DNA of 64,000 bases from an uncultured Candidatus Saccharibacteria bacterium (GCA_965231055.1 OZ246411.1:665875-729874); one strand, 5' to 3'; shown: positions 17,234-34,377, counted from the first letter of the stretch. The notes: a model not told the origin generated them from the letters alone. Numbers and translations are program-made.

Positions 17234-18454
17234 TTATTTAATAGATTTTTTAGTTGCCTCTATTACTCTTTTTACAGCTAACAAGTATCCTGCCTCTCTA
17301 AATGTATTTGAGTTATTTTTTGATGCAAAAACTTTTTCACAAGCTAAGTCTATATGCTTTTTAAGCTTAGCGTTGACATCAGACAAAGACCAATGCTCGT
17401 TTTGTTTGTTTTGCAACCATTCAAAATAGGACACTATAACTCCACCACTATTTACCAATATATCAGGAATCACTGGGATCTTTTTTTGTGATAAAACTTC
17501 GTCAGCTTCTGGGCTAACAGGACCATTGGCTATTTCCAAAACCATTTTAGCTCTAACTGCATTAACATTTGAATCTGTAATAACTCCATCAATAGCCGAA
17601 GGTGCCAAAACATCTAACTCAAGAGATAGCAATTCTTCGTTGGTAATATCCTTGGCAAATCCTTTTAGGTTTCTATTGGCTTTTTTGTATGCAATAGCTT
17701 TTTCTATGTCGATACCGTTTTCATCATAAGTTGCAGTTTTTGAATCCGAAATCGCAACTATTTTATACCCAGCTTGGCTTGCGAGTTTTGCAAACCATCC
17801 GCCAGCATTGCCTATTCCCTGAACCGCTATAGTAGAACCATTTTTTAATCCCAGTTTTTCTGCAAAAAATTGGAGTGTGTAAAGCGCACCTTGACCCGTA
17901 GCTGCATCTCTGCCCTCTGATCCACCTTCCTCCAAAGGCTTACCCGTAATTACTGCGGGAACTGATTCGCCTACCAATTTTTCGTACTCATCTCTCATCC
18001 ATTTCATAATTCTAGCATCTGTATTTACATCAGGAGCTGGAACATCCAAATCTGGGCCGATATTACGATATATACCCCTTATAAAGCCCCTAGAAAGCGA
18101 TTCTAGCTCTTTTACGCTTAATTCCGAGGGATCTACTGTGACACCACCTTTTCCACCACCCAGAGGAATCCCTGCGAGCGAGCACTTCCAAGTCATCCAC
18201 ATAGCAAGAGCTTTTACCTCGTCAGGATTTACGTTTTCGTGAAATCTGATACCTCCCTTATATGGACCAAGCGCACTTGAGTGTTGAGATCTGTAACCCT
18301 TAAAGATTTTGATATTTCCTGAATCCATTTTTACAGGAATAGAAATCTCTATAAATCTCTCGGGAGATTTCAAGATTTCAATAATCTCACCGTCCTCAGC
18401 AAAACTTGAGGAAACTTTATCTAATTGTTTTTTTGCGTTTTCGAATGCATTCAT
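17234..18454 (-). CDS. gdhA: Glutamate dehydrogenase (Glu/Leu/Phe/Val dehydrogenase family)
   Basis: KGGIRFHENVNPDEVKALAMWMTWKCSLAGIPLGGGKGG contains the catalytic Lys region. C-terminal NAD(P)-binding GIGNAGG. Confidence 0.8.
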   Translation of the reverse strand: MNAFENAKKQLDKVSSSFAEDGEIIEILKSPERFIEISIPVKMDSGNIKIFKGYRSQHSSALGPYKGGIRFHENVNPDEVKALAMWMTWKCSLAGIPLGGGKGGVTVDPSELSVKELESLSRGFIRGIYRNIGPDLDVPAPDVNTDARIMKWMRDEYEKLVGESVPAVITGKPLEEGGSEGRDAATGQGALYTLQFFAEKLGLKNGSTIAVQGIGNAGGWFAKLASQAGYKIVAISDSKTATYDENGIDIEKAIAYKKANRNLKGFAKDITNEELLSLELDVLAPSAIDGVITDSNVNAVRAKMVLEIANGPVSPEADEVLSQKKIPVIPDILVNSGGVIVSYFEWLQNKQNEHWSLSDVNAKLKKHIDLACEKVFASKNNSNTFREAGYLLAVKRVIEATKKSIK

Positions 18455-19065
18455 TAGAAAATATTAATATTTAAAAGTAATAACCCACCAAGTATTAAAA
18501 GAATTATTCCTGCGATAATATCTAGAGTCTTTGCATTTTTAATTCTACTACTTATAAATTTGGCTATTAGTATGGAGACAAGGGCACCCAAAAGAAAACC
18601 CACTCCAAATCCAAGTATCTCAGTAAGTGTTCTCGCCCTATCCCACATAACCACAGAAGCAACCACAAAATCATTTAATCCGCTAACCAAAATATAAATC
18701 AAAAATCCGATTAAAAAATTGTGTAGATATCCTTTGGAAAGTCCACCTCTCTCAACATGGCGATTTACATGAAATGGTATGCGTTCTGCGAAAGCATCCC
18801 AAAGTTCTTTGAGAGCTATAACTATAACTATGACGGCTGGAATTTTTATAGCAAAACCCGAGAGCTCATAATCTCCAAAAAGCCACGCAACTATCATAGC
18901 TAGTACCAATCCAACAATAGCACCCACAAAATTACCAAGCATCAGAAACCTTTTGCTTTTTCCCGAAGTCTTTTTGAGTGAGATAGCTACCAAAATCAAA
19001 TCATCTACCCCCGTAGCAAACCAAGCAAAAATTCCCAATAAAATTGCGCCAATCAGAGGCAACAT
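18454..19065 (-). CDS. CadD-family (cadmium-resistance-transporter-like) membrane protein
   Basis: Two internal repeats with intramembrane Asp (ATGVDDLILV and SGLNDFVVAS) parallel the TSIDYLVIL / GADNIGIFV repeats of CadD; ~200 aa, 5-6 TM. Confidence 0.45.
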   Translation of the reverse strand: MLPLIGAILLGIFAWFATGVDDLILVAISLKKTSGKSKRFLMLGNFVGAIVGLVLAMIVAWLFGDYELSGFAIKIPAVIVIVIALKELWDAFAERIPFHVNRHVERGGLSKGYLHNFLIGFLIYILVSGLNDFVVASVVMWDRARTLTEILGFGVGFLLGALVSILIAKFISSRIKNAKTLDIIAGIILLILGGLLLLNINIF

Positions 19066-19201: not shown

Positions 19202-21214
19202 TTATCTAATTGGCGTATTATCTATATCTAGTGGTTTTTTCTTGTCATCATCTTTTCTTCTCTTTCCAAGTATCCACCATAGAAATAGGATAATAATTAT
19301 GAGTATTAGCCAGAACCACCATTTCGTGAGAAGCCATTTGAAACTATTCCAGAAACTAGATGCTTCCGCTTTTAGGTTTGGATCATCTTGATCATCCGCT
19401 CCCAAAACTGTACCATCTTTTTCTTCGTCTTTATTCTCATCTTCTTCTGTGGCTTCGTCATCCGCTCCTCCACCAGTTCCAAATGCGGTGGTGCCAGCAA
19501 CAGTTCCCGTAGTAGCGGTTGTCGTAGTAGAAGAAGTTGTCCCTCTATTTATAGTATTTTCTTCTGTGTTTTCATCTGTGACACCAGCGACAGTTCCTTG
19601 ATCATCGGCATCATCATCGTTGTCTTGGTCATCATCTTGTGGAACATCTTCAGTTGCCAAGGTGAGTCCCCAAACGGATGAATCAACACTCCATCTTCCA
19701 AAACTGTCTTTGGCTTTTACTTTCCAAGAATAATTTCCCTCTGGCAAATTCAATGTAAGATTTGTATCGGTTGTATAGTGAGTAGCTCCATTTACGGTAA
19801 GTTCATATTCGGTAGCATCATCAACTGCGGTCCATGTAAAAGCTACATCGGCTGGTTCGGTTTCAAATCCATTTGCAGGAGAGATAAGTGTAGGCGCATC
19901 TGGAGCAGTAGTATCAACTGTAAATTGCCATGTTTCACTCCAAGGACTTTCATTTCCCGCAGAATCCCTTGCAATCACCTTCCATGAGTGCAAGCCTTCT
20001 GAAAAAACCCATGGATACTGTTTCTCAGTTAAGTCAGAGACAAGAAGTGAATCATCAAGATACACATCGTAATACAATGAATCAACCACAACACCCTTTA
20101 TAGAAGGAATTGTTCCAAAATCTTCATAATCCCATTCCAAAGTAATATTTGGATCATTTGTTACAAAACTATTTACGGGAGCATAAAGTACTGGGGCGTT
20201 TGGACTTATCGTATCAATAGTAAAATTCCAAGTTTCGCTCCAGGGACCTTTTACACCATCAGAATCAATAACTCTCATTTTCCACTGCCAATCGCCATTT
20301 ATTCCCATCATAAAAGCACAAATATCATTACTGGTAGTTTGCGATGGATCAGTAATCTTAATCTGAACAGATAAAGGACCCCTTAAAGAAACTTCGAATC
20401 CAGATAAAAACGAGCTATCCTGATTCGGATTCCAAGAAAAAGAGGGGCAAGAATTCCCAACTAAAGAATTATTTGCTGGAGCAACTAGTATAGGAGTTTT
20501 TAGAGTGGGTTTTTCAATAATAAAATTCCATGTTTCACTCCAAGGACCTTTCATACCTCTATGATCAACAACTCTCATCTTCCACTGCCAGTTCCCAGTA
20601 GTTAAACGAATTCCAGCAAGATTTGTTTGATAAGCATCATTGATAGAAAACTGCATATAATCAGAACCGTTACGATAAAGTTTTAGTTCGTAACCCGACA
20701 ACCCAGAAATTTCTTGATTTGAATCCCAGATAAAATTAGGATAAAGTGAATTTATCGTTGAGTTATTGGCTGGAGAAATTAGTATTACTCGAGCCAGTTC
20801 CCTAGGAGCTACGCTGTAAATGCCAGAGGAATCAATTAGACCGCTAGCACCAAATGATTTTGTATTGGAATTAGTTTTTACTATAGCTTTGTCTTTTGCA
20901 ACTACTGAAAGTTCTTTTTCAACTACTTTGACTTCCGAGGTAGCTTCGTCAGCTTTTGATACAACCTCATCTACCACGACTTCTGGTTCAGTCACCTCTT
21001 CTGGCTCTTCTTGAGCTAGATCAGATAGTGGAGCTCCTGGGACTATTTCATCTTCCAAGACAACACTCTCTACTGGAGTAACTTCTTCTGTCGCAACTTC
21101 TTCAGGAGCATTTGCGTAAATAGCTGGAGCAGAATTCATAAAGAGCATAGAAAAGATAACACAAAAAGCAAAAAGCTTTAGTGCACTTTTCTTTGAACTG
21201 GAGGGGATTTTCAT
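19202..21214 (-). CDS. Large secreted surface protein with FN3-like repeats, acidic/Thr-rich stalk and a C-terminal KWWFWLIL membrane anchor
   Basis: Signal peptide. Four repeats carry W..K....D..G..(S/G)PWSETW(N/Q)FT(I/V)(D/E), resembling fibronectin-III. DDQDNDDDADD and T-rich low complexity follow. The C-terminus is FWNSFKWLLTKWWFWLILIIIILFLWWILGKRRKDDDKKK. Confidence 0.6.
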   Translation of the reverse strand: MKIPSSSKKSALKLFAFCVIFSMLFMNSAPAIYANAPEEVATEEVTPVESVVLEDEIVPGAPLSDLAQEEPEEVTEPEVVVDEVVSKADEATSEVKVVEKELSVVAKDKAIVKTNSNTKSFGASGLIDSSGIYSVAPRELARVILISPANNSTINSLYPNFIWDSNQEISGLSGYELKLYRNGSDYMQFSINDAYQTNLAGIRLTTGNWQWKMRVVDHRGMKGPWSETWNFIIEKPTLKTPILVAPANNSLVGNSCPSFSWNPNQDSSFLSGFEVSLRGPLSVQIKITDPSQTTSNDICAFMMGINGDWQWKMRVIDSDGVKGPWSETWNFTIDTISPNAPVLYAPVNSFVTNDPNITLEWDYEDFGTIPSIKGVVVDSLYYDVYLDDSLLVSDLTEKQYPWVFSEGLHSWKVIARDSAGNESPWSETWQFTVDTTAPDAPTLISPANGFETEPADVAFTWTAVDDATEYELTVNGATHYTTDTNLTLNLPEGNYSWKVKAKDSFGRWSVDSSVWGLTLATEDVPQDDDQDNDDDADDQGTVAGVTDENTEENTINRGTTSSTTTTATTGTVAGTTAFGTGGGADDEATEEDENKDEEKDGTVLGADDQDDPNLKAEASSFWNSFKWLLTKWWFWLILIIIILFLWWILGKRRKDDDKKKPLDIDNTPIR

Positions 21215-21362: not shown

Positions 21363-24317
21363 TTATGCGACATTATCTTTGGAGTTTTTTCTATTTTTAG
21401 CAAGAACTCTCCGTAGCACTACAAATACTATCACTAAAATCAACCAGAACCACCATTTAGTGAAAAGGTTTTTCATAATTTTTCCAAATGCTCCAGCTGT
21501 TGCTCTTAGATCAAAGCCATCATTGTCAGTATTAGCATCGTCTTTTACAGACTCATCGCTATTGGATTTTGCGATTTGTTCTAATTTGCTAGAAGTAGAT
21601 TCGCCTGCAACAATTCCTTCTGACTCGGTTGAGATTGAAGAGGTTGAGCCCTGAGTTGCTGCTGAAGCAGTGCTTGAACTCGTGCTAGCAGAAGTCGTAT
21701 CTGAATCATCTGAGGAAGATGACACCATCTCTTCTTTATTTGTAATAACTACCAATTCTTCTGCGAGAGGTGCGGATGCGTGACCATTTTTATCAAATGC
21801 CATCACAGCATAATAAAAAGTTTCACCATAATCATTGCCCTTTAGAGCATCTATGTATGTATATTTTGTATTTGCTTCAACATCCATAGCGCCAACATTT
21901 GTTTCATTATCCACTGCGAAGCTCTTGCTTTTTGATTTGTAAATCTTGACACTCTTTGTTTCTTCATCATTGGCAGTTTTGAAAACTATGTCATATCTAG
22001 CATCAGATTTCTGTATTTTTTCTATGCTAACTGGTTTGAGAGGATTGGTATTGTCAAATTCAGTTGTAACAACATCAGACTCCACAACATCAGATCCAGC
22101 AATTGCTTTGACCTGAAAATTGTATACACCATCTTGCGTAAGAACATCCTTGGTAACAGTACAATTATCAGTATTTCCGCCATTAGCCAATAGGACATCT
22201 TCTCCGAATTTCACAAAACTAGAATCTGAAGGTGATTTTTTGTAGCAAGAAATAGCAACTTCTCTACCCTGAGTATCCAATGCCACAAAATTTAAATCAA
22301 ATTCACTATCTATTAGCTCTTGTGGTTCTGCCAATCTGATTACTAAGGAAGATGAAGCCGAAGCAACACCTCCAAAAGCCAAAACTCCAAAGCCTACTGC
22401 AACGACTGCGAGAAGTTTTCTTGAGTCTATTTTTTTCTTAGGCATAATGGCAAAGAGCAATGCAAATGCCATTGAAATAACTGAAATCATAACAAATATA
22501 ATTCTATAGTCAGCTCCGGTCACGGGTAATGTTTCAGGGGTAGTGGCTCCGAGAACTTTCCCCGGAATAATATTGGTAATAGTATTTTCTGAAACAGCGA
22601 CTGGTACGCTATCATCATTCTCAACTTGCGCTAATATATTGACTTCGGTACCTACGAAATTTGTATCCACATATCCAGTAGCCTGCGCCAATGCCAAGAT
22701 TTCTCCAGGTTCTTGATTGTTCATGCCCCTAGCAAAAGCTACGTCCTTATAAATACCATCAGATATATCCGATGCGACATCTCCTATATATGAAAGTGTT
22801 ATAACTTCATCTTTTGCCATAGATCCTATCGTCCAATCTCCAGGCGAAGCATAAGTTGGTTCCAAAACCACTCCCAAGTCTTTGAGACTTCCTCTTTGGT
22901 TTGAAACTGCATTGAAACTGCCGGCTCTGTATTTTATTCCTTCTGGGAGAAGATCTGTCACCACGGCATTGTCCAATGAATTTCCGATCAAGCTTATATT
23001 GATAGAATATTTGATATCGCTTCCAGCGTCCAAAAATGCACTACCTGCATCATTGGATTTTGAAATATACAATACTGGAGCATCCTGCTCTGTTTCAATT
23101 TTGGTGTTTGTAAAAACACATCTGATCACTTCTTCTGCCCCGAGACTTACAAATTCTTGATTTGGATCAGGAAGTGCCGCCATGTTCACAGAATATTCAT
23201 CTGAAATATTTGGCATTTGTTGTTCGTCTTGTTCACAAGTCACAGATGTCTCATAACCTGGATAAGCCTCTTCTTCTATCACGTATCTTCCTACCGGCAA
23301 ATCTGCAATATATGGATTGTCTATTTCAGAAAGCTGAAAATCCACAGAGGTTTGATCTAACCTAGAAACAGAAAAATCAAATTTAGTTGGATCATTCTCT
23401 ATATTTGGCACATCTTTTTCTACGATTAGAGTACCGTAAGCTTGTGCTGAGATAGTTTGTCTATTCACTACATCAACATCCACAGACTTTCCTTCCCCTA
23501 CTGTAATTTGATATCCTGGTAATCCAGAATCATCATCTCGAGAAATACTATAAAGTTCATATCCACTAGGAATATTTGTTTCAGAAATTGTATATGTACC
23601 TGCTGATCTTATATATTCATGGGAACCGCCATCTGTGAGACTTGCCATATCTCCATCCAAATCTATACTAAAACTTTGAGCTACATCATAGATATCTTCA
23701 CCATTTGGACCTACCACATCTTTATGAACCGTTATGCTTGCTGGGTTTTCAATGTAAGGATCTGGACTAACTGGTATATCTCTACCACCAACGTCATTTA
23801 ATGAGATTTTAATTCTTGCCCCTGGCCAATCAGCGGCATCGTCACCTAAAAGACTATTCCAATAAATCGTAGCTGTGGTTTTTTTAGGGATAAAGGATAG
23901 ATTGTATTCTAAGCAAGTATCGGCACCACAATCAACTTCGCCAATTAAGCTCAATATCACATTATCAGCACCATCATCTGAAAAAATCAAAGCATCTCTA
24001 TTAAAATTAAGGATACCGACGGGGTCATTGCCAAATAATTTATAGCTATGTTTAATTTCTATCGAATGAGCTTCGTCAACTGTTAAATTTTCTATTTCTA
24101 GTCTGGTTGGAATATTTTGTCCTTCCTGGTAATGTTTTATATCTCCAGGTGTCCATGTCCCATCTGTTTCCATTGCCTCAAGAGAATACTTATAAACTTT
24201 CGCATTCACACCCGCCACATTATAAAAACCTGGATTCATTAAACTCAAAAACAACGCAAATAGCGCCATTGTAAGAAACGCTACTTTTACGTTTTTTCTA
24301 ATTCTTGCTTGGCTCAT
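21363..24317 (-). CDS. Composite surface protein: LPXTG-type adhesin with Cna-B/pilin-like domains, fused in frame to a second secreted module ending in the KWWFWLIL anchor
   Basis: N-terminal signal peptide. Cna-B-like motifs (GTYTISETNIPSGYEL, VGRYVIEEEAYPGYETS). LPVTG followed by a hydrophobic stretch and KKK at aa ~606-630. Then a signal-peptide-like segment (MPKKKIDSRKLLAVVAVGFGVLAFGGVASASS), FN3/Ig-like domains, a Ser/Thr-rich region, and the C-terminus LFTKWWFWLILVIVFVVLRRVLAKNRK. Confidence 0.6.
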   Translation of the reverse strand: MSQARIRKNVKVAFLTMALFALFLSLMNPGFYNVAGVNAKVYKYSLEAMETDGTWTPGDIKHYQEGQNIPTRLEIENLTVDEAHSIEIKHSYKLFGNDPVGILNFNRDALIFSDDGADNVILSLIGEVDCGADTCLEYNLSFIPKKTTATIYWNSLLGDDAADWPGARIKISLNDVGGRDIPVSPDPYIENPASITVHKDVVGPNGEDIYDVAQSFSIDLDGDMASLTDGGSHEYIRSAGTYTISETNIPSGYELYSISRDDDSGLPGYQITVGEGKSVDVDVVNRQTISAQAYGTLIVEKDVPNIENDPTKFDFSVSRLDQTSVDFQLSEIDNPYIADLPVGRYVIEEEAYPGYETSVTCEQDEQQMPNISDEYSVNMAALPDPNQEFVSLGAEEVIRCVFTNTKIETEQDAPVLYISKSNDAGSAFLDAGSDIKYSINISLIGNSLDNAVVTDLLPEGIKYRAGSFNAVSNQRGSLKDLGVVLEPTYASPGDWTIGSMAKDEVITLSYIGDVASDISDGIYKDVAFARGMNNQEPGEILALAQATGYVDTNFVGTEVNILAQVENDDSVPVAVSENTITNIIPGKVLGATTPETLPVTGADYRIIFVMISVISMAFALLFAIMPKKKIDSRKLLAVVAVGFGVLAFGGVASASSSLVIRLAEPQELIDSEFDLNFVALDTQGREVAISCYKKSPSDSSFVKFGEDVLLANGGNTDNCTVTKDVLTQDGVYNFQVKAIAGSDVVESDVVTTEFDNTNPLKPVSIEKIQKSDARYDIVFKTANDEETKSVKIYKSKSKSFAVDNETNVGAMDVEANTKYTYIDALKGNDYGETFYYAVMAFDKNGHASAPLAEELVVITNKEEMVSSSSDDSDTTSASTSSSTASAATQGSTSSISTESEGIVAGESTSSKLEQIAKSNSDESVKDDANTDNDGFDLRATAGAFGKIMKNLFTKWWFWLILVIVFVVLRRVLAKNRKNSKDNVA
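22515..22529 (-). other. Internal LPVTG sortase-recognition motif inside ORF 21363-24317
   Basis: ACA TTA CCC GTG ACC GGA on the minus strand encodes TLPVTG, followed by the hydrophobic IIFVMISVISMAFALLFAI and then MPKKK. The in-frame ATG is at 22445-22443. Confidence 0.6.
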
Positions 24318-24445
24318 TTAATTTTAGTTTAAATAGTAAATTCGATAATAAGTCGTGTAAAATATTTTTAGCGTAAATCTTAAAATACTACTAAAAACGA
24401 CATAAGTCAATGATAATTGGACTTGCGTATTTGACAATTTTGTTG

Positions 24446-24454
24446 TGATATAAT
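24446..24454 (+). promoter_or_regulatory. Extended -10 promoter element (TGaTATAAT) upstream of membrane-protein gene A
   Basis: TGATATAAT sits ~55 nt upstream of the ATG at 24510. A strong SD (GGGAGGAAGGG) precedes the ATG. Confidence 0.3.
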
Positions 24455-24509
24455 AGCTTGTAGTCAAATTGATTGTTCACTACATAAAACTTCAATAAGG
24501 GAGGAAGGG

Positions 24510-24914
24510 ATGAAAAACTTTAATGCTAAACTCTTATCGGTATTGCTTGGGATTTTTGTTCTTTTGGCAATTGCTATCCCCTGTTTTTACGCCGTAGATA
24601 TTGCTGAGATCAATGCCTTTCTGTATCCATTGGGATGCGAACCGGGTCAGATAATCCCAATTTCAATGGTCATGCTGGGAATCATATCGGGAATAATTTT
24701 TGAAAAGATACTAGGAACGCAGAAACTCTCGGGATTCGTACTTGGTTTTTTCTCAGCTAGCATGGTCGTCACCCTATGCATATCAATCAATAATAACTGC
24801 GAAAAAGCACTGAAATCCATGGTTTTCATTCTGGTGTTTGTGTTCATTTTCTACATTACCGCCCTAATAAACGGGATAATCTCAAAAGAAAGTTCGTCGG
24901 AACACAAAGAATAG
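24510..24914 (+). CDS. Small polytopic membrane protein A (4 TM), unknown function
   Basis: 134 aa, highly hydrophobic. Strong SD GGGAGG 7 nt upstream. Own terminator downstream. Confidence 0.5.
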   Translation: MKNFNAKLLSVLLGIFVLLAIAIPCFYAVDIAEINAFLYPLGCEPGQIIPISMVMLGIISGIIFEKILGTQKLSGFVLGFFSASMVVTLCISINNNCEKALKSMVFILVFVFIFYITALINGIISKESSSEHKE

Positions 24915-24946
24915 AAGCGCATCACGAGAAGATCATTACAAGAAAT

Positions 24947-24980
24947 AGCGACTGGAAAAAAACCGGTCGCTTTTTATTTT
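24947..24980 (+). terminator. Rho-independent terminator after gene A
   Basis: AGCGACTGG-AAAAAAA-CCGGTCGCT followed by TTTTTATTTT. Confidence 0.6.
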
Positions 24981-25067
24981 ATCCTAGCGATTGACAAAAA
25001 AGAGATTTCTGATAGTTTTGCAGCATATCTGCTCATTTAAAAACCTTATCCGTAAAGGAGAAATGTC

Positions 25068-25781
25068 GTGAAAAATTTTATAACTCATTTGTCTCGAGTG
25101 ATTTGTGTTTTGATTCATCTCACGCTTCTGTCACTGGTTGGATTCTTCTATTTCAATAATTTTTATGCAGAAATAGTGGGAATCCTGTTATTCAGCTCGC
25201 TGGTATCTGGAATAATTTTTGGAAAATGGAAAGTTGCCACCTCTAGGGCAGCAATTTACTGCCTTATCATTCCAAATACCCTGTTGATCATTGGATTCAT
25301 CACAGCCCGATTAATCACTATCGAAACATCATTACTGAAAGCACTACCCTGTTTGGTTTTCACAGTCGCGATCACCACAATTTTGAATGTTTTTGGAATT
25401 ATCTGCCAAGAAATCCTAGAAAGAACGGTGCTAAGAGTTCTCAAGGCGTTACTGGTGTTTTGGCAATCGGGAATGATAATGATGTTCACTGAAATCGACG
25501 CCATCTTTTCCGTAATCACGGTCAACATGGTGGCTGCAATGTGCCTGGGAATAATTCTCGGAAATGCCAGAATATCGGAGTATAAAGAATTCGGACACCA
25601 GTTGCATGTATGGTATTACCCAGCAATAGTATTGTCTTCAATGCTATTAATCACCATTTCATGTCATTTATTTGGCATAAAATACCACTTCCACTACGGA
25701 ACAAATTTGGGTGTTCTCAGTTCTTTCATTTCAGGACTAGTGGGTTTGCTAGTATACAAACTCGTATCTCAAAAAACCTGA
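25068..25781 (+). CDS. Polytopic membrane protein B (~7 TM), unknown function
   Basis: 237 aa. GTG start preceded by AAAGGAG. A TTGACA -35-like element lies at 24991. Own terminator. Confidence 0.5.
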   Translation: MKNFITHLSRVICVLIHLTLLSLVGFFYFNNFYAEIVGILLFSSLVSGIIFGKWKVATSRAAIYCLIIPNTLLIIGFITARLITIETSLLKALPCLVFTVAITTILNVFGIICQEILERTVLRVLKALLVFWQSGMIMMFTEIDAIFSVITVNMVAAMCLGIILGNARISEYKEFGHQLHVWYYPAIVLSSMLLITISCHLFGIKYHFHYGTNLGVLSSFISGLVGLLVYKLVSQKT

Positions 25782-25800
25782 TAACAATTTTATCAAAGCA

Positions 25801-25831
25801 AGGTCATGCAAATATGCGTGACCTTTTTTAA
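25801..25831 (+). terminator. Rho-independent terminator after gene B
   Basis: AGGTCA [12-nt loop] TGACCT followed by TTTTTTAATAAT. Confidence 0.5.
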
Positions 25832-25919
25832 TAATCCTAAAAACTAGACATACCAATCTAAATTTGTTAGTTTCTAACCATCTGTTCCTTTTATAACCAA
25901 AAACGAGAGGGGGTGCCAA

Positions 25920-26612
25920 GTGAAATGGACAAAAATCATCGCGCTTGAGAAGAAAATCGTATTCGGAATTCTTTTGGCAGAGATCGCGCTATTATCACTT
26001 TCTGCCTACGCATCGACATACCTGGGGTGGAACTGGTTTGCAAGATTAATGATTTCTGCAATCATCGGTTTCACTGCGGGAATGATTGTGTCAAAAAAGA
26101 CAGACCAAGCAGATGCAACTATCAAGATGTTGATTGCTACGTCAATTATTCAGTTCGCAACCGGAATAATTCTATTATCAATGAAGTTCTGGCTAACAGG
26201 ATTGATGCAAGCTATTCCGGGAACAATAGCCATGGTAGTATCTTTCGTGGTTGGCACTGATCCCCATGAGAAAAAATGGAGATTGATAAGCTTATCGATT
26301 TCAGCAACCACTCCAATACTATTGAAACTACTCCTTGCACATACATACCTCACAATTTTGACACTGGTATTTATCTTCGCCTTGCACGGTATTACATTTT
26401 TAGAAATCTGGCGCAAGCGTAAAGAACCCTCCGAAAGAATCTCGATGTGTTGGTACTTGTTTTGGGCCTTCATGTCGATCATCTCATCAACAACGGCATT
26501 ATCAGAAAGATATGGAAGTGGGATGTTAGACTTAACCACCCTAGCACTAGGAACCGTGATTATGGCTATCACAGTTCAAATTACGAGATCATTGCCTCAA
26601 CAAAAACGCTAA
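25920..26612 (+). CDS. Polytopic membrane protein C (~7 TM), unknown function
   Basis: 230 aa. GTG start with GAGAGGGGGTG SD. Contains a YLGWNW motif in TM2, shared loosely with B and E. Confidence 0.5.
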   Translation: MKWTKIIALEKKIVFGILLAEIALLSLSAYASTYLGWNWFARLMISAIIGFTAGMIVSKKTDQADATIKMLIATSIIQFATGIILLSMKFWLTGLMQAIPGTIAMVVSFVVGTDPHEKKWRLISLSISATTPILLKLLLAHTYLTILTLVFIFALHGITFLEIWRKRKEPSERISMCWYLFWAFMSIISSTTALSERYGSGMLDLTTLALGTVIMAITVQITRSLPQQKR

Positions 26613-26633
26613 GCCACAGCTCTCTCGAAAATA

Positions 26634-26663
26634 AAGGATCCAATTGCGGATCCTTTTCTTTTA
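26634..26663 (+). terminator. Rho-independent terminator after gene C
   Basis: AAGGATCC-AATTGC-GGATCCTT followed by TTCTTTTAT. Confidence 0.6.
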
Positions 26664-26802
26664 TCATAATCACTAATTTCGAAGACGAACCAATAATACT
26701 ATTCTAAACAACCTATCTCAAATATTCACAATTTTTTATCCACTGGACAGAAGTACTGATTAGTAATAGTCTGGATTCAAAGGTGATCTTTTCACACGAA
26801 AA

Positions 26803-26830
26803 CAGCGCGACAAATCGCGGTGTTTTTTTC
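26803..26830 (+). promoter_or_regulatory. Terminator-like hairpin plus U-tract inside the 5' leader of gene D (possible attenuator)
   Basis: CGCGA-CAAA-TCGCG then GTGTTTTTTTC immediately 5' of the SD AAAAGGAGGA and the ATG at 26849. Gene C already has its own terminator at 26634. Confidence 0.3.
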
Positions 26831-26848
26831 AAAAGGAGGAGTTTTGCA

Positions 26849-27568
26849 ATGAGAAGGTATCTGAGTTCGGTGAAAAAATGGGCAAAAGTATTTGCCAAAG
26901 CGGTGGTTAGCCTCTGTTTTGCAGCCACACTTCTGGGTGTTGGGTTTATTTCTACTCACAGCCTCATACCGGAAATGGCATTGCCAATCATATTGTTGGC
27001 ACTTGCTGTTGGGTTTTTGACCGGCGGAAGATGTGAAGATATTACAAACATGGACACTCGAATTCCATGCGTAACCTTCATAGTCTCTATTTGCAGCTAT
27101 GCGGCATTTCAAAAAACCACACCGATGAGCGTCGAAAACGGAATTTCAGGAATATGCATGAGCCTAGTACTGGGGATTACGACAATACTCGGCATATACT
27201 TCAACCGAAAAATCAAACCAATGTTCTGGATATCGGCTATATCAATCATGCTTTTCTGGCAAACCTCGACTTTGCTCTACGCAGTAGCCCCTCTCTGGAT
27301 ACTAGGAATTGATGGAATAATCGCAGCAACTCTCGGTATATTTTTCGGAATACAAATAAACAACTTTAAACCAAAATCTATCAGATTTCGAACCAACCGA
27401 ACCATCACTGTCATTGCTGCATGCATAGCTGTTTTTGCCTCAAACTGGATTATCGGATCAAGATCAGGAAATAGCGATGTAGTTATGTCGCTCATAACAA
27501 CTGCAAGCTCACTTTCCGCAGGGCTTCTCACCTATTTCTCCACACGAAGAAAAAACAATGCTCATTAA
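26849..27568 (+). CDS. Polytopic membrane protein D (~7 TM), unknown function
   Basis: Start set at MRRYLSS: AGGAGG lies 8 nt upstream, and the longer ORF from 26783 lacks an RBS. 240 aa. Confidence 0.5.
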   Translation: MRRYLSSVKKWAKVFAKAVVSLCFAATLLGVGFISTHSLIPEMALPIILLALAVGFLTGGRCEDITNMDTRIPCVTFIVSICSYAAFQKTTPMSVENGISGICMSLVLGITTILGIYFNRKIKPMFWISAISIMLFWQTSTLLYAVAPLWILGIDGIIAATLGIFFGIQINNFKPKSIRFRTNRTITVIAACIAVFASNWIIGSRSGNSDVVMSLITTASSLSAGLLTYFSTRRKNNAH

Positions 27569-27584
27569 CTCAACAAAAACATAC

Positions 27585-27616
27585 ATAGCCCATCTCCCGG
27601 TGGGCTATATTCTTTT
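27585..27616 (+). terminator. Rho-independent terminator after gene D
   Basis: ATAGCCCA-TCTCCCGG-TGGGCTAT followed by ATTCTTTT. Confidence 0.55.
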
Positions 27617-27697
27617 AGTGGACTTTTTTTATGTGTTTTGATAGGCTCAAATTGTTCTTTAATAATTTGTTTTCAACTATTGAAAGGGGGTTTTGCT

Positions 27698-28357
27698 ATG
27701 CAATGGAATTCTATAATATTGATCATCTCTGTGCTCGTGATTATGCTATCTTCTGGCTTCATCGCTAACTACGTAGGCTGGGTGTCCGGACTTATTTCTA
27801 TTTCACTAGCTGCGATAGTGCTAGGAACATGGGCATCACCAAGAAAAGAGGCAAAAGAAGCAGGAGAAATGGAAGCGATAGCTATTGTAATTTTTGGAAC
27901 GATATTTTTGTTCATATTCAATCTCGTAACTGCAGTCATTTTGTGGTCTTGGTCGCTAGTCCTCTTTGGAATAATAAATGCGATTCTGTTCTTAATGTTC
28001 GCGATGCAAGGACTGACCGGAAACGACGAGATTCCGAATCGGAAAAACTTCATCATCGCGCTTGGATTCATTGTCACAGGCATAGTATTCCACGGCGAAA
28101 TCGAGCCAATGCTAATTTCTCATTTTATCCTGACAGTTCTACAAGCAAGAGAAATGATCTGGGAAAAAACAGGTTGCAACAGAATGACTATAGCCATCAC
28201 GTTCGGGGCGATATTTATAGCGAGCCAAATATTCTGCCTATCAAGCAGTGATCCGTATCTTTGGGCAAAGATAAGTATCCCCGAATCAGTCTTGGCAGCT
28301 TTTATCGGAGCAGCTGCTATGATCATTTCAAGTGTGGGATCAGCAGATCTCGCATAA
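27698..28357 (+). CDS. Polytopic membrane protein E (~7 TM), unknown function
   Basis: Start set at MQWNS with AAAGGGGG SD. A TTGATA-17-TAATAAT promoter-like element lies at 27639-27667. 220 aa. Confidence 0.5.
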   Translation: MQWNSIILIISVLVIMLSSGFIANYVGWVSGLISISLAAIVLGTWASPRKEAKEAGEMEAIAIVIFGTIFLFIFNLVTAVILWSWSLVLFGIINAILFLMFAMQGLTGNDEIPNRKNFIIALGFIVTGIVFHGEIEPMLISHFILTVLQAREMIWEKTGCNRMTIAITFGAIFIASQIFCLSSSDPYLWAKISIPESVLAAFIGAAAMIISSVGSADLA

Positions 28358-28381
28358 ACATCTCGCATTGTTGAAAACAAA

Positions 28382-28417
28382 AACGGGATTCACCCTGTGT
28401 GACTCCCGTTTTTTTAT
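28382..28417. terminator. Bidirectional terminator between gene E (+) and the pseudouridine synthase gene (-)
   Basis: AACGGGATTCAC-CCTGT-GTGACTCCCGTT followed by TTTTTTTATTT. Confidence 0.6.
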
Positions 28418-29131
28418 TTAGCCTAATAGTTTTTGTTTTATTTCGTCTTCGCTCAGAATCCTGTATTGACCCGATGCGAGATTTCCAAGTTCAAGTTTGT
28501 TTAGTGACACTCTTACAAGTCGCCACACATGTAGTCCTAGATTTCTACACATTCCTCTGATCTGTCTCTTTCTCCCCTCTCCCAATTCAAATTTCAATAA
28601 AGTGTTGGTGCCCTTTGGAGCTATGAGCGTAACTTCTGCTGGTCTAGTTTTGTATCCGTCTATGTCAAAGCTTCCATTTAATTTTTCCAAAACCTCGTCG
28701 CTAAATTTTCCTGAAACCAAGACTTCGTAAACTTTTTTGTGCCCAAACGAAGGATGCGTCATTTTATTGATCAAGTCTCCGTCATTTGAAAATATCATAA
28801 GTCCTTCGCTATCTTTATCGAGGCGACCTGCGTATTCTAGTTTTTCATCAAAATCACCCAGAAGTTCATATATAGATTTTCCTTCTCTGATAAAACGAGA
28901 ACAGATGTATCCAGCTGGCTTGTTTAAAACTATTGTGATTTTTTTCTTTGAGACTGATATAATTTCATCTTTAAATTTTACTACATCCTTACTAGGATCC
29001 ACCTTGGTTCCAAGCTCTGTAACTTTTTCACCATTTACGAAAATATATCCGTGAGCAATCAAAACCTCCGCCTTTCTTCTTGAGGCGATTCCTGCATCTG
29101 CTATAAATTTTTGGAGTCTAACTAGTGCCAT
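28418..29131 (-). CDS. rRNA pseudouridine synthase, RsuA/RluB family (S4 domain + catalytic domain)
   Basis: N-terminal S4 RNA-binding motif (RLQKFIADAGIASRRKAEVLI), catalytic GRLDKDSEGL, and C-terminal GRKRQIRGMC. Confidence 0.7.
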   Translation of the reverse strand: MALVRLQKFIADAGIASRRKAEVLIAHGYIFVNGEKVTELGTKVDPSKDVVKFKDEIISVSKKKITIVLNKPAGYICSRFIREGKSIYELLGDFDEKLEYAGRLDKDSEGLMIFSNDGDLINKMTHPSFGHKKVYEVLVSGKFSDEVLEKLNGSFDIDGYKTRPAEVTLIAPKGTNTLLKFELGEGRKRQIRGMCRNLGLHVWRLVRVSLNKLELGNLASGQYRILSEDEIKQKLLG

Positions 29132-29227: not shown

Positions 29228-30388
29228 TTATTTTTTTAAACCGAGATTATTGAATGGCTCTTTGGTTTCATTTTTCTTCTCATCTTCATCGTCATCTTTC
29301 TTTTTGGTAAGTAACCAAATTATGAAAGCTACGATCAAAGCTATAATCAACCAGAACCACCATTGCTTCAAAAGCCATTTAAACCAATCACCAAGTTTTT
29401 GCATGAATGATTTGGCTTCAGCTTTTACTTCCGGAGCTTTGTCATCAGAAGTTCCAAGAATAATTCCGGAATTATCTGAATCATTATCATTGGTAGTGAT
29501 TTTGTCATTACTATCTTTGTCTGCGTCTGTTTTTGACGTGTCTTTATCATCATCTCCAGCAACAGTTCCTTTGGCAAGTGTAAATGCAATCATATCACTC
29601 CATTCGCTGTAATTTCCTGCTCTGTCTGCTGATCTTACTTTCGCGAAGTAATCTCCAGCTTCAAGATTTGAAATTACTATACTGTTATTGGCAATTACTT
29701 TTGAATCAAAAGCGTAAGTTTGAAAATTGGTATTTTTTGCAACAACCACATTGTAACCATAAACTCCACTAGATAGATTGCTTGGAGCAATTTGATCATC
29801 TGAGGTGGTCCAATTCAAGTTAACGCTATCTTTGAACTTGCTTGAATTTACAGTTGTGAAAGAAGGAGAATTTGGATTTCTGGTTTCAGTCCAGAATCTA
29901 GCATAAGAACTTTTCTCAACTTGACCTTTCATGTTTTCCACTTCCATTTGAACAACCCAAGATCCATCACCAAGCTGCTTGATTTGTTTTTCTATAATCT
30001 TGTTTGATATCACGGCTGATGTTCCAGAAATAGAAACCTCAAAGTGAGCATAGTTTATTCCTGCTGGTTTGCATTCTGATCCAGCGCTCTGACCGTAATC
30101 ACAATTTCCAGCTGTGTGCCAAACATTGAATCTGGCTACTTTGAGTCCAGCTTCATCAACCACACTTGCGTTTACAGTTACAAATTTCTCACTATGCGTG
30201 AAAAGATCTGAAACACTAGCGTTTCCATTGTAATTGATCTCACCGAGATGAAAATCTTTGATTATAGTAGAAGAAGCGCTAGTTTTGGATGGAATCACGA
30301 ATCCCATAGCCAAAATAGCAATCAAAGCTACTACCAAGATTTTGCCTGTTTTAAGCCAATTTTTCATAATTTTTAACTTATTTAACAA
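29228..30388 (-). CDS. Secreted surface protein with FN3-like domain, acidic stalk and C-terminal KWWFWLII membrane anchor
   Basis: Signal peptide. FN3-like VNLNWTTSDD...AGDYFAKVRSADRAGNYSEWSDMIAFTL. D/K/T/S-rich stalk. C-terminus AEAKSFMQKLGDWFKWLLKQWWFWLIIALIVAFIIWLLTKKKDDDEDEKK, homologous to the C-termini of 19202-21214 and 21363-24317. Confidence 0.6.
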   Translation of the reverse strand: MLNKLKIMKNWLKTGKILVVALIAILAMGFVIPSKTSASSTIIKDFHLGEINYNGNASVSDLFTHSEKFVTVNASVVDEAGLKVARFNVWHTAGNCDYGQSAGSECKPAGINYAHFEVSISGTSAVISNKIIEKQIKQLGDGSWVVQMEVENMKGQVEKSSYARFWTETRNPNSPSFTTVNSSKFKDSVNLNWTTSDDQIAPSNLSSGVYGYNVVVAKNTNFQTYAFDSKVIANNSIVISNLEAGDYFAKVRSADRAGNYSEWSDMIAFTLAKGTVAGDDDKDTSKTDADKDSNDKITTNDNDSDNSGIILGTSDDKAPEVKAEAKSFMQKLGDWFKWLLKQWWFWLIIALIVAFIIWLLTKKKDDDEDEKKNETKEPFNNLGLKK

Positions 30389-30467: not shown

Positions 30468-30496
30468 ACTTGACAAAATGCTTTTAAAGTTGTAGT
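30468..30496 (+). promoter_or_regulatory. Candidate sigma70-type promoter (TTGACA-17-TAGTAA with upstream TG) for gene 30647-32563
   Basis: TTGACA at 30468 and TGTAGTAA at 30489-30496. Confidence 0.25.
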
Positions 30497-30646
30497 AAGG
30501 AGTGTCACGCTGTATAAGAATAATAATCAGTTTCAGTCAACGGAACTGTAAAAAACCCCATTTTATGTGTTTTTTCAGCTCTGTTCATTGAAAATTTGCG
30601 TGGAAACAATAACAACAATTTGCCTCAAAGAGGCAAGGAGGATGTC

Positions 30647-32563
30647 ATGGTAAAGCTTAATAACTTTTTTTTCGCTGTATTCACCGTTTGTTTGATTACA
30701 ACCCTTTTCCCCACAATTTCGTGGGCGACAAACTGCGACACACAAATCTCAATAAGTTTCGACCAGTGTCGCACAGGTTCAACAGCCGGCCTAAGTAATT
30801 ATCACGATTGCGGGGTTGGCCACGAAGGACCGGACCAGTGCTATAGGTTTACTATTTCGTCCACAACCACAATCAGATTTCGCGGAAAGGCTGATTTCGA
30901 TGCCGACTGGTCTATCGCAACTGAGTGTGGACCAGACATCGGCGATGTCCGATGCATCGATTTCACACAGGGCGGAAATCCGGACTTCAGCTGCGGAAGT
31001 TTCTCCGTGAATACTTACAGTATTATGGACGAGACAATTACACTGAATGCTGGATCATACAAGATTTGGGTCGACGGATACTATTCGTACTCGGATGGAA
31101 ATTATGCGCTCATGATTACAAACGAAAGCGCAACAAATACTCCAACCCGTACACCGACTCGAACTCCGACGAGAACGCCAACGCGTACTCCAACATCAGT
31201 TCCGCCAACCAATACCGCAACTCGGACACCGACACGGACACCCACAAGTGTACCTGCCACAAGCACGCCATTCCCAACAAACACTTCAGTTCCTCAGACA
31301 CACACACCCGCACCGACAAATACTCAAAGCCCCACAACACCCACACCATCCCCGATTCCAACGTGTTATAACAATGCATTGGAAAACCCGGGGTTTGAAA
31401 TGTGGGACGAGCCAGAACTTCCGCCAATGGAATGGATTCTTAGCAACCCTGAGGATTCATACGCAAGGATGGAGCCAGTCAATTATTATGACGGTGAATA
31501 TTCTTGCAGAATTGCTTGGTGGGATGCCACACATTCCATCTATCTTTCACAAGCTATGTCGATGATTCAGGGAACCGAATTGCATCTGCGGATAAAATAT
31601 CTCGATATGAATCCGCACGCCCACATTCAAATCAAGAATACATTTATCAACTCCGTGGGTGATAGTATCGGTGAATCCTGGAGCGAAGCATCTGCAACAA
31701 ATGCAGATTGGCAAACGCTCGAAATTTTCGTCATGGCTCCGCCGGGAACCGTGGCCTCTATCTTTTCGATCGAAGCCGAAGCAGATGTGCCGGAATATCA
31801 GGGTGAAACTTTCATAATCCTTGTGGACAATGCGGAAATTTGCAGTATATACCAGCACAGCCCGACACCAACACGAACCGCAACGCCCGTACCAACCAAT
31901 ACCGCTATACCGACAAACACTGCAACTCGGACACCGACACGTACACCAACGAGTGCATCCGCTACAAGCACACCGACAAGTACTCCGATTCCTGCAACTC
32001 GAACACCCACTCCGACAAATACACATAATCCTAACCCAACATCCACCCCAACAGTAATTCCTTCAACAAATACCCCGCACCACAATCCAACCTCAACACC
32101 CACTATCCAGCAACCTACGAATACCGCAATACCATACACACCGGAACCAACCCCGACAGCAGAATGCCCAGAGCTCGGAATCAGGATTCAAATGCCTGAT
32201 TTCACATCTCCCGGAGACCCGTTCTTTGTAACAGGTCACATCTGCAACACTGTCGGACACGAGTTTAAAGACATCATGGTGTTTTTTATCCTCGATGTTT
32301 ACGAGGATTACTGGTTTTGGCCAAGTTGGAGTCATTACGGTCTAAACGTAGGCGGAACGATCGACTACATTGTCCAAGATATCAATCAAGGACATGAGGA
32401 AGTTGACGTGATTCCAACCTTTTACTGGCCCGACACTGGTGACTTAGAAGCTCGTGGGTTGTCGATCTGGGGAGCACTTGTTGTTCAAGACGAAGATGGA
32501 GTATCACTCATCCTCGGAGAATTCGACAGACACAGCTTTGGCTTCGGACCCAATCCCAACTAA
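30647..32563 (+). CDS. Secreted multidomain protein: PPC (pre-peptidase C-terminal)-like domain, Thr-Pro linker, CBM4/9-like jelly-roll domain, second Thr-Pro linker, unknown C-terminal domain. Compositionally foreign (GC-rich).
   Basis: Start set at MVKLNNFFF with GGAGG 6 nt upstream. Signal peptide. PPC-like motifs [26 protein letters not shown] and [37 protein letters not shown] linkers. NPGFEMWDE...[12 protein letters not shown] resembles carbohydrate-binding-module family 4/9. GC content is visibly far above the flanking DNA. Confidence 0.6.
31141..31330 (+). repeat. Coding tandem/imperfect repeats encoding the first Thr-Pro-rich linker
   Basis: Iterated ACnCCnACnCGn units (TPTRTP). The segment GCAACTCGGACACCGACACGGACACCCAC recurs at 31918-31950. 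Confidence 0.7.
31861..32110 (+). repeat. Coding repeats encoding the second Thr-Pro-rich linker (internal duplication of linker 1)
   Basis: [15 protein letters not shown] is shared with linker 1, and the nucleotide identity is near-perfect over ~25 nt. Confidence 0.7.
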
Positions 32564-32709: not shown

Positions 32710-33552
32710 TCAAGACATCGCTTTTAAAAATCTGTTAACATATTGAGATGGGATGGTTCTTCCCATAACTATATTCGGAGTAAAGTTTGGACCATGCCAG
32801 TCACTACCAGCTGTAATATATAGATCGAACATATTTGCGATAGACTTAATCATTTTTATCTCCTCATGAGTGTGTTTGGGAAAATACACTTCGATGCCTT
32901 TAAGACCAAGTTTAGCTAATTTTAGTATCATTTCTTTATAACTATCTAAACCCATATTTCTCAACTCCCTACCTGAATGAGCTAACACCGAAATACCCCC
33001 AGACTTACTAATCAAAGAGAAACTCTGTTCGGGCGTCATCATCCAAGAATCATCCTCAATAGTAAAAACATATCTTTTTAAGATTTCTTTAAGGGAAATA
33101 GATTGATTTAAGTGCTCTAAAACTAATCTAGCCAATGTATTCCTACTAACATATGCCTCATGATTTTTTTTGAGATTATTAAAATTCAAATTAATTCCTG
33201 GAAAAATCTTATTCAATTTTTTTATAATAGAGCGAGCCCTTTCGTTATACCCATTAATTGTACTAAACAAACCTTTGTTCAATAGTGACATATTAAGATT
33301 AGCACCGTAGCCCAACACATGCAAGGATTTTTTTATGCCAGATAATCTCAGGGTAGTAGAAATTTCAATACCGTTAATATATTTTATCCCACTATAACGC
33401 GCAAACTCTTTTGCTTCTTTGTTATTAGAAATAAAATTATGTTCAGTGATTGAAAAGACTGAAATATTTTGCTTCTTTGCTTCCTTAACCATTTGCAATG
33501 GCGACAATTCCCCATCAGAAAAATAAGAATGTGTATGTAGATCTATATACAT
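32710..33552 (-). CDS. PHP-domain metal-dependent phosphoesterase (TrpH/YciV-like)
   Basis: MYIDLHTHSYFSDGELSP...VFSITEHN matches the PHP motif DLHxHSxxSDGxxSP...TDH. VLAHSGR and DWHG are downstream His/Asp motifs. Confidence 0.65.
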   Translation of the reverse strand: MYIDLHTHSYFSDGELSPLQMVKEAKKQNISVFSITEHNFISNNKEAKEFARYSGIKYINGIEISTTLRLSGIKKSLHVLGYGANLNMSLLNKGLFSTINGYNERARSIIKKLNKIFPGINLNFNNLKKNHEAYVSRNTLARLVLEHLNQSISLKEILKRYVFTIEDDSWMMTPEQSFSLISKSGGISVLAHSGRELRNMGLDSYKEMILKLAKLGLKGIEVYFPKHTHEEIKMIKSIANMFDLYITAGSDWHGPNFTPNIVMGRTIPSQYVNRFLKAMS

Positions 33553-33609: not shown

Positions 33610-34377
33610 TCAATAGCTTTTTAGTGAGCGACATATTGTCTGGTAGTTATTTTTAAATTGAACTCCGTGTAAAACCAGATTAAATAGGTTTTCATACCAA
33701 TTCATAAGAAGAACACCTCGCTCAAAGTCGATTGAACCCTTGCATGATATAAGAAACCCCATAGCTGAGGATGAATCTACGCCGTAAATTTCGTCAAATA
33801 GATTAAAGCACTTTTTGAGATTTGAAGGCGTAACCAAATAGGGGCTCTTGTGCTTACAAGCATAATAAGTAAGTGCATTACCAGGACCATGGAGCAGCTT
33901 ACTTACAAAAATTCTACCTTCTTCATTACTAAGTGACCTGATTAATTGTCTTCTGCATATTGTTCTATTGTCATGAAGTACATACGCGGTCAAGTCAGAA
34001 AAAGAAAACCAATGAGTTGAAGTACTTATTGAATTAATATTAAGATCCCCCTTAATATTAAATCCAAAGGTAAGCGATGGATTATACCTGGGATACCACA
34101 ATGGCGAATTAAGATCTACGAATTCGTCTTCCGTATGAACGACGAGATCTATATCTTGCTCTGTTTTTTTTGACAATATTTCTCGAGATCGTTTTAATGC
34201 AGAATAACAATCATGGCTTACAACACCGCAAGAACTAGACACGACCACGGCAATGTCCATGTCTACAGACGATTCATTATAGAGCCATGAACCATAAACT
34301 TTAGCACTTTGCAAGTATTTAATCTTACGCAATTCTATACCAACATCACGTAGAATATTCTTTTTCGTCTTATCCAT
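33610..34377 (-). CDS. Nucleotidyltransferase-fold protein (Pol-beta-like NTase domain + uncharacterised C-terminal domain)
   Basis: KVYGSWLYNESSVDMDIAVVV contains the GS...DxD motif. IDLVVHTEDEF supplies the third acidic residue. 255 aa, similar in size to KNTase/ANT enzymes but with unknown specificity. Confidence 0.5.
   Translation of the reverse strand: MDKTKKNILRDVGIELRKIKYLQSAKVYGSWLYNESSVDMDIAVVVSSSCGVVSHDCYSALKRSREILSKKTEQDIDLVVHTEDEFVDLNSPLWYPRYNPSLTFGFNIKGDLNINSISTSTHWFSFSDLTAYVLHDNRTICRRQLIRSLSNEEGRIFVSKLLHGPGNALTYYACKHKSPYLVTPSNLKKCFNLFDEIYGVDSSSAMGFLISCKGSIDFERGVLLMNWYENLFNLVLHGVQFKNNYQTICRSLKSY

Follow-up and report, generated by a model that had tools for sequence, protein, structure and literature searches.

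Within a 64,000-nucleotide (nt) stretch of the genome of an uncultured Candidatus Saccharibacteria bacterium (GCA_965231055.1, OZ246411.1:665875–729874; hereafter, the window), five consecutive plus-strand genes, A–E, lie next to a conserved rluB-type pseudouridine synthase gene. The array that they form is restricted to the lineage and lies at a fixed site beside rluB; its five expression cassettes are self-contained, and each encodes an orphan polytopic membrane protein. Each cassette comprises a sigma-70-like promoter (T-GACA, 16–17 nt, TAGNNT), a leader of ~40–80 nt, a strong Shine-Dalgarno (SD) sequence, one open reading frame (ORF) and an intrinsic terminator. All five same-strand ORFs proposed by a first-pass annotation of this DNA are present at the positions below and encode proteins of 134–239 amino acids (aa) with 4–8 predicted helices. 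The elements are as follows (TM, transmembrane helices; energies in kcal/mol).

24394–24459, plus strand: conserved divergent-promoter block upstream of A, with TTGACA (24431–24436), TGnTATAAT (24446–24454) and TAGCTT (24454–24459, 17 nt after TTGACA)
24510–24914, plus strand: gene A, 134 aa, 4 TM; SD GGAGG at 24500–24504, −11.3
24947–24981, plus strand: terminator of A, 9-bp stem and T run, −15.3; hairpin kept in the related locus L015 (see below)
24991–25018, plus strand: promoter of B, TTGACA, 16 nt, TAGTTT; a TG precedes the −10 box; kept in L015 at 597–624
25068–25781, plus strand: gene B, 237 aa, GTG start, ~7 TM; SD AAGGAG at 25055–25060, −8.7
25800–25831, plus strand: terminator of B, 11-bp stem, −16.2
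25845–25873, plus strand: promoter of C, TAGACA, 17 nt, TAGTTT; resembles the promoter of gene L3 in L015 (1522–1550)
25920–26612, plus strand: gene C, 230 aa, GTG start, ~7 TM; SD GAGGGGGTG at 25907–25915, −14.7
26633–26665, plus strand: terminator of C, 9-bp stem, −14.1
26744–26772, plus strand: promoter of D, TGGACA, 17 nt, TAGTCT
26798–26829, plus strand: terminator-like hairpin within the D leader, 3′ of the predicted promoter and 5′ of the SD; U7, −14.4, z −4.4
26849–27568, plus strand: gene D, 239 aa, ~6 TM; SD AAGGAGGAG at 26833–26841, −11.6
27585–27618, plus strand: terminator of D, 10-bp stem, −15.6; U tract interrupted
27619–27647, plus strand: promoter of E, TGGACT, 17 nt, TAGGCT; a TG precedes the −10 box
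27698–28357, plus strand: gene E, 219 aa, 8 predicted helices; SD AAAGGGGG at 27683–27690, −11.9
28379–28419, strand not assigned: terminator of E, −17.2; A run on one side, T run on the other
28418–29131, minus strand: rluB-type pseudouridine synthase, the conserved right flank, with Pfam S4 and PseudoU_synth_2 domains

A locus syntenic with the window is carried by a 2,753-bp Logan contig from ERR4067841 (L015), which begins in the conserved region upstream of A and ends inside rluB; a second contig from the same sample is referred to as L016. The comparison thus covers two genomes. The stretch upstream of A is 82% identical to its counterpart in L015 as a whole and contains 43 consecutive invariant columns (15–57). 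Between the flanks, the window has five genes and L015 has three, namely L1 (136 aa), L2 (256 aa) and L3 (226 aa); each of these three is likewise equipped with a promoter of that type, a terminator and a strong SD. Amino acid identities, nonsynonymous (dN) and synonymous (dS) divergence and Smith-Waterman (SW) statistics were as follows.

rluB, window versus L015: 93.5% identity; dN 0.04, dS 1.02, dN/dS 0.04
203-aa membrane protein, 18454–19065 (control, with its ortholog on L016, ~6 kb away): 90% identity; dN 0.055, dS 0.66, dN/dS 0.084
A versus L1: 32% identity; dN 0.63, dS 2.15, dN/dS 0.30; SW z 26.6
E versus L3 (positional counterparts): 23% identity; dN ~1.0, dS saturated; SW score 143, z 16.4
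L2 versus any window protein: no detectable similarity; SW z ≤2.2

Change in the array proteins is therefore 11–25 times as fast as in the two flanking genes and roughly matches the flanks' synonymous rate. B has no detectable counterpart protein in L015, and the sequence upstream of L2 is 72% identical to that upstream of B, up to the SD. Despite this divergence, the ORFs are open in both genomes and the promoters, SD sequences and terminators are conserved; the 28-nt terminators after L1 and L2 in L015 are identical. Between A and L1, the best-conserved segment (residues 26–50, 56% identical) includes predicted outer loop 1 and TM2. These results indicate that, between the two genomes, gene number differs and the coding sequences are extremely diverged, whereas the regulatory scaffolds are conserved.

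The array also differs from most window genes in its translation signals and codon composition. We expressed SD strength as the duplex energy between the anti-SD and the 20 nt upstream of the start, with −8 kcal/mol as the threshold for comparison. All five array genes fell between −8.7 and −14.7 kcal/mol, as against one (33610–34377) of the 44 other large ORFs in the window that reached −8 or lower at the tested start; this agrees with the earlier claim that each array gene has a strong SD and that most other window genes lack one. A rescan of the 64 kb for any SD followed by a start codon added three further plausible SD-led starts, at 30647–32563, 37693–37896 and possibly 4031–4177. The block had also been described as GC-richer than its flanks, which holds only slightly for overall GC (0.39–0.42 versus 0.37 for the window) but clearly for GC at third codon positions (GC3; 0.41–0.45 versus 0.321 ± 0.036 elsewhere in the window, Mann-Whitney p = 6 × 10⁻⁶), with C raised and T reduced at these positions. 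The rise is not seen in other plus-strand or membrane-protein genes, except for one 14-helix gene (GC3 0.40), and in the related locus GC3 is 0.38–0.44 in L1–L3 versus 0.31 in the L015 rluB fragment.

Of the promoter elements named in the first-pass annotation, TTGACA at 24431 and 24991 and TGnTATAAT at 24446 are present, but the TTGACA of A lies only 12 nt from TATAAT (24449), so that this pair is not canonically spaced. A shared pattern, T[TGA]GAC[AT]-N16–18-TAGNNT, occurs upstream of all five window genes (at 24431, 24991, 25845, 26744 and 27619) and all three L015 genes, and has seven matches in the 64 kb versus 2.8 expected. Judged by sequence, it is better supported as the array promoter than the TTGACA/TATAAT pair of A; for E, an alternative reading is TTGATA, 17 nt, AATAAT at 27638–27666. 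Downstream of the −10 box, by 5–15 nt, TGTTC is exact in six of the eight leaders (TGCTC in B, TGATC in D), and this short motif by itself is not enriched in the window. As had been proposed, every gene has its own terminator, namely a hairpin (−14.1 to −17.2 kcal/mol) with a U tract behind it (that of D being interrupted). Because an A run and a T run flank the hairpin after E, it could also serve the convergent rluB. The additional hairpin in the leader of D, which lies in the longest spacer of the array (C–D, 236 nt), could be what is left of a lost cassette or else act as an attenuator. No riboswitch or other Rfam family was found in the block in either gathering or E-value mode.

Public gene calls, made independently, give starts and lengths of A–E identical to ours by exact look-up. 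Each protein is a singleton at 90% identity, and the five occur on the 843,892-bp NCBI contig and in Logan assemblies of SRR10912417. A literature search on the two run accessions gave no result. We take A–E to be real genes because ORFs of 134–239 codons stand at ~39–42% GC, the public calls are identical, dN/dS for A/L1 is 0.30 and the signals are conserved across species; the reading of the array as spurious ORFs was rejected on ORF length, the conserved expression signals and the dN/dS of A. Hydropathy predicts four helices for A and ~6–8 for B–E, and the secondary structure in AlphaFold2 (AF2) models has eight helices in E and, in A, four long helices plus a short loop helix.

The absence of a recognizable domain in A–E was confirmed, in that searches against Pfam, NCBIfam, PADLOC and PHROGs returned nothing significant; the best PADLOC and PHROGs E-values (0.0045–0.9) involved short hydrophobic stretches only. 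An exhaustive phmmer search with the five proteins concatenated against 1.84 billion representatives recovered the five self-hits, which served as positive controls, and one other protein, P0008, a relative of A only (136 aa, 35% identical to A in this search, E = 1.7 × 10⁻¹³), which is the product of L1; B, C, D and E had no relative in that set. C alone found no relative among 5.8 billion proteins, and neither the E+L3+C profile, the A+P0008 profile, B nor D matched a Protein Data Bank sequence at E ≤10. With rluB as an anchor in genome and metagenome contigs, nothing closer than 53% identity and no further arrays were recovered.

The first-pass annotation had regarded all five proteins as divergent paralogs, and this was not borne out. 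The highest pairwise SW z values were 4.4 (B–D), 4.3 (C–E) and 3.3 (A–B), as compared with up to 4.1 for unrelated membrane proteins of the window used as decoys, and hhalign probabilities among the array proteins were ~1% throughout. Hidden Markov models (HMMs) of E+L3, A+L1 and E+L3+C detected no significant paralogy against decoy membrane proteins. L3 bridges C and E, with z values of 6.5 and 16.4, respectively, and the HMM of E+L3 ranked C top among 37 non-members, yet at E = 0.034 (39 sequences). Because collinear similarity peaks at residues 1–50 and 76–100 coincide in the C–E, C–L3 and E–L3 comparisons, we accept C and E as probable remote paralogs; their alignment with L3 contains no conserved charged, polar or catalytic residues. 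A is collinear with the N-terminal half of B (MKNF..., SGIIF-K, KAL--VF, GII--E), including two in-frame nucleotide matches, without reaching significance. D matches no other array protein, and no internal duplication was found within B–E. At the level of whole units, the shared promoter, leader and SD architecture, together with the identical 28-nt terminator after L1 and L2, suggests that the cassettes have a common ancestor.

We read the locus as a diversifying, accessory envelope cassette array that possibly encodes immunity or exclusion determinants, and put the probability of this reading as a whole at roughly 35%. In such a model, cassettes would arise by tandem duplication of a single promoter–ORF–terminator unit with recombination between the conserved intergenic modules driving their turnover. 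The proteins would act as independently expressed membrane specificity determinants, most likely in immunity to, or exclusion of, membrane-acting polymorphic toxins, bacteriocins or phages. Interaction with a shared partner would hold the first two to four helices constant while the remainder diversifies, a pattern reported for the tandem TsaI immunity genes discussed below. The functional part, which draws on analogy, is a tentative and somewhat doubtful proposal. We consider it quite unlikely that the locus represents a new kind of array, in which scaffolds are kept and ORFs are replaced or diversified to give a strain its private immunity or exclusion repertoire, expressed through an SD-dependent route unlike that of most genes. 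The earlier suggestion of a diversified immunity, receptor or toxin-resistance array is partly supported: the monocistronic layout and the contrast in SD use and composition are real, the comparison of the two genomes fits a diversifying array (three versus five genes; 32%, 23% and undetectable similarity versus 93.5% and 90% in the flanks), and nothing found ties the array to an immunity, receptor or toxin-resistance role.

Several observations weigh against the immunity or exclusion array. Its surroundings contain no recognizable toxin, secretion-system, recombinase, phage or defence gene, the large neighbouring ORFs at ~15–34 kb contain no toxin or LXG/WXG domain, and the cassette proteins showed no match to families of immunity, defence or phage proteins. 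Statistics do not support A, B and D as paralogs of C and E, and the AF2 models of E (with C; predicted local distance difference test score, pLDDT, 43.7) and A (with P0008; pLDDT 54.8) are too poor for fold comparison. The shared promoter pattern was derived from the upstream regions of B–E, that is, after the sequences had been seen. Since only two genomes are compared, both the orphan status and the apparent hypervariability rest on one comparison, and with dS near 1, relaxed constraint alone could yield similar divergence. The lineage is also very poorly sampled, the next rluB homolog among 5.8 billion proteins being only 53% identical; because of this, and because the neighbouring surface proteins are likewise without clear families, the orphan status is less remarkable.

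These last two facts favour an alternative in which A–E are weakly constrained, lineage-specific membrane proteins that need only hydrophobic helices, have no antagonistic role and are special mainly through undersampling. At dS ~0.7–1.0, near-neutral proteins would drop to 20–35% identity, and the lack of conserved charged or catalytic residues in the C/E/L3 alignment fits as well. We nonetheless find this alternative unlikely: that every cassette keeps strong and conserved expression signals speaks for a maintained function, the ORFs are intact in both genomes, the number of genes differs between them, and a further polytopic protein is 90% identical between the two. Transporters, for example S components of energy-coupling factor (ECF) systems (~200 aa, 6 TM, often monocistronic), would agree with the cassettes in size, helix number and layout, and a reduced genome would need scavenging systems. 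No match to a transporter or S-component family (ECF_trnsprt, BioY, ThiT and others) was found in Pfam or NCBIfam even at E ≤1, the leaders are without riboswitches, no polar residues are conserved, and 23–32% ortholog identity beside flanks of 90–93% is unexpected for nutrient transporters; we rate a transport role as very improbable.

Two further alternatives concern the surroundings and the origin of the array. The block had been placed between genes for surface proteins with a KWWFW anchor, and this proved correct; rluB separates E from the last of these genes:

19202–21214, minus strand: 670-aa KWWFW surface-protein gene
21363–24317, minus strand: 984-aa KWWFW surface-protein gene, divergent and directly upstream of A, with a weak SpaA-like domain match
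29228–30388, minus strand: 379/386-aa KWWFW surface-protein gene

A–E could be proteins of the envelope or host interface in a reduced-genome symbiont, regulated jointly with the KWWFW surface proteins and diversifying together with a host or partner cell rather than as immunity factors. Besides the position of the array inside a stretch of surface-protein genes, the shared promoter pattern recurs upstream of the 379/386-aa gene (30440–30412), and the TGTTCATT leader motif also occurs upstream of a gene for a secreted protein with Pro/Thr (PT) repeats. A 0.84-Mb contig, the presence of DUF4012, TagA/WecG and PrsW, and LPVTG in a surface protein suggest a small, reduced genome with a Gram-positive-type envelope, possibly Patescibacteria-like. 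When L016 (3–209) is set against window positions 19202–19400, no homolog of the 670-aa KWWFW gene lies upstream of the 203-aa gene, and the product there ends ...ILGTELK. Because the 670-aa gene is absent from its place in L016, the variable stretch probably extends over ~19.2–28.4 kb, and the surface-protein genes, too, appear to be variable between the two genomes. Against this explanation, outer loop 1 and TM2 are the most conserved part of A/L1, where simple antigenic variation of exposed loops predicts the opposite, and co-regulation is based on short motifs only; we rate it as rather unlikely. The cassettes might, in turn, have been acquired horizontally from an SD-using donor, or the site might be a hot spot for repeated insertion of foreign cassettes, an account of origin that is compatible with any function. 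In its favour are the strong SD in 5/5 array genes versus ~1/44 elsewhere and the raised GC3 of the window array (0.41–0.45 versus 0.32, with third-position C enriched) and of L1–L3; the SD-led gene at 30647–32563 is GC-rich as well, though two other SD-led genes are not known to be. However, no donor appeared among the 1.84 billion representative proteins, viral contigs, plasmids and phages gave no match to the array proteins, and no integrase, transposase or flanking repeats were found at the array. Moreover, the two genomes carry the array at one and the same site and share homologous intergenic modules there, so that any acquisition would predate the split of the two. We regard a horizontal origin as less likely than not.

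The diversifying immunity or exclusion array has its closest functional analogue in the TsaI arrays (DUF443) found downstream of TspA, a toxin of the T7SS (type VII secretion system), in Staphylococcus aureus (PMC9484751; PMC7456083). TsaI has five TM and occurs in 2–16 tandem copies, and its conservation is limited to about the first 75 residues (PMC9484751). As in those arrays, the genes here encode polytopic membrane proteins of ~220 aa in tandem, their copy number varies between genomes (five versus three), and high variability goes together with conservation concentrated in the first helices, with slight evidence for intragenic recombination. In contrast to TsaI, A–E match neither DUF443 (not even at E ≤1 in Pfam) nor another family, neither a toxin gene nor a T7SS was recognized beside them, the proteins are mostly not alignable with one another whereas TsaI paralogs clearly are, and every gene has its own promoter and terminator. 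Membership of the TsaI family fails on sequence and on the missing adjacent toxin gene. In the EsaG and TipC arrays of firmicutes (PMC9484751), copy-number change is linked to conserved blocks that include intergenic regions, and here an identical 28-nt terminator flanks L2 in L015 and the intergenic modules are homologous between cassettes. EsaG and TipC differ in being soluble or lipid-anchored and in having highly similar paralogs, and in our array recombination is putative.

Two other types of gene array resemble the locus in layout. Integron arrays consist of unrelated single ORFs on the same strand, each followed by an imperfect inverted repeat, and their content varies between conserved flanks. 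The array likewise comprises same-strand single ORFs with a hairpin 3′ of each and variable content between conserved flanks. It differs in that no integrase was recognized nearby, the scanned ORFs of at least 150 aa between 162 and 44307 being free of recombinase domains where integrons have an adjacent IntI tyrosine recombinase with attI and Pc, in that its hairpins are ordinary GC stems with T runs, unrelated in sequence and with no evident attC core site, and in that each cassette has its own promoter and SD whereas integron cassettes are promoterless. The products of the variable surface loci vsp, vlp and vsa of mycoplasmas are lipoproteins that have conserved signal peptides and repeats, and switching in these loci relies on site-specific inversion or promoter repeats. 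The loci share with the array the clusters of single-gene units, the conserved 5′ regulatory regions, the highly divergent coding regions and a small genome. Unlike theirs, the products of the array are polytopic, and neither a simple-repeat switch nor, in the same scanned ORFs, a recombinase was seen.

If A–E are diversifying immunity or exclusion determinants, they would point to interbacterial or phage antagonism in a scarcely known lineage and would supply new families of membrane-embedded immunity proteins, a class that is hard to find by homology. If they are only weakly constrained, lineage-specific membrane proteins, the finding is an ordinary one. The genes of the window also divide into an SD-less, low-GC3 group and an SD-led, high-GC3 group that includes all five cassettes, and this division provides a handle on initiation mode versus gene origin in genomes that do not use the SD.

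Several features of the neighbouring surface-protein genes were also observed. The three large surface proteins end alike, in (T/K)(K/Q)WWFWLI, a hydrophobic helix and a basic cluster. This C-terminal module resembles a lineage-specific anchoring or sorting signal in its sequence, and it matched none of the sorting-domain models of NCBIfam and Pfam. The idea that array proteins serve as an exosortase- or rhombosortase-like processing enzyme for the KWWFW anchors was rejected, as they have no family match and the C/E/L3 alignment contains no conserved Cys, His or Arg. In the middle of the 984-aa ORF (21363–24317), at ~22400–22530 on the minus strand, LPVTG is followed by a hydrophobic helix and KKK, as in a sortase-type signal, and directly after it comes an apparent second signal peptide (RKLLAVVAVGFGVLAFGGVASA). 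This ORF may therefore represent two fused genes or a processed protein.

The SD-led genes outside the array are of diverse types. The gene at 30647–32563 (plus strand; 48% GC) encodes a 638-aa secreted protein with Pro/Thr repeats of the TPTRTPTR type, and its likely start, 30647, is preceded by the SD AAGGAGG. Its leader (30470–30646) contains TTGACA, 17 nt, TAGTAA, together with the TGTTCATT motif of the array leaders, and the gene may belong to the regulon of the array or to the same class of acquired genes. The gene at 37693–37896 (minus strand) encodes a 67-aa, two-helix membrane protein and has its own TGATATAAT promoter, a very strong SD (AGGGAGGTG, −15.1 kcal/mol) and a terminator. 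Outside the array, too, there is thus a monocistronic, SD-led gene for a membrane protein. The gene at 33610–34377 (minus strand) encodes a 255-aa, cytoplasmic-looking protein with no family match, and has the SD AGGAGG at its annotated start and an ordinary GC3 (0.31).

Nearly all window genes are without an SD, examples of this gene class being 6992–8251, 32710–33552, 14201–15010, 35840–36532 and 43306–44307. In ~12 of 43 genes, a −10-like box ends 5–7 nt before the start codon, and other genes have short A-rich leaders. Among the latter, the gene for the 203-aa membrane protein carries TGGTATACT and then 29 nt before its start, a stretch that is kept in L016. The −10-like boxes 5–7 nt before start codons suggest that leaderless mRNAs are produced in the window.

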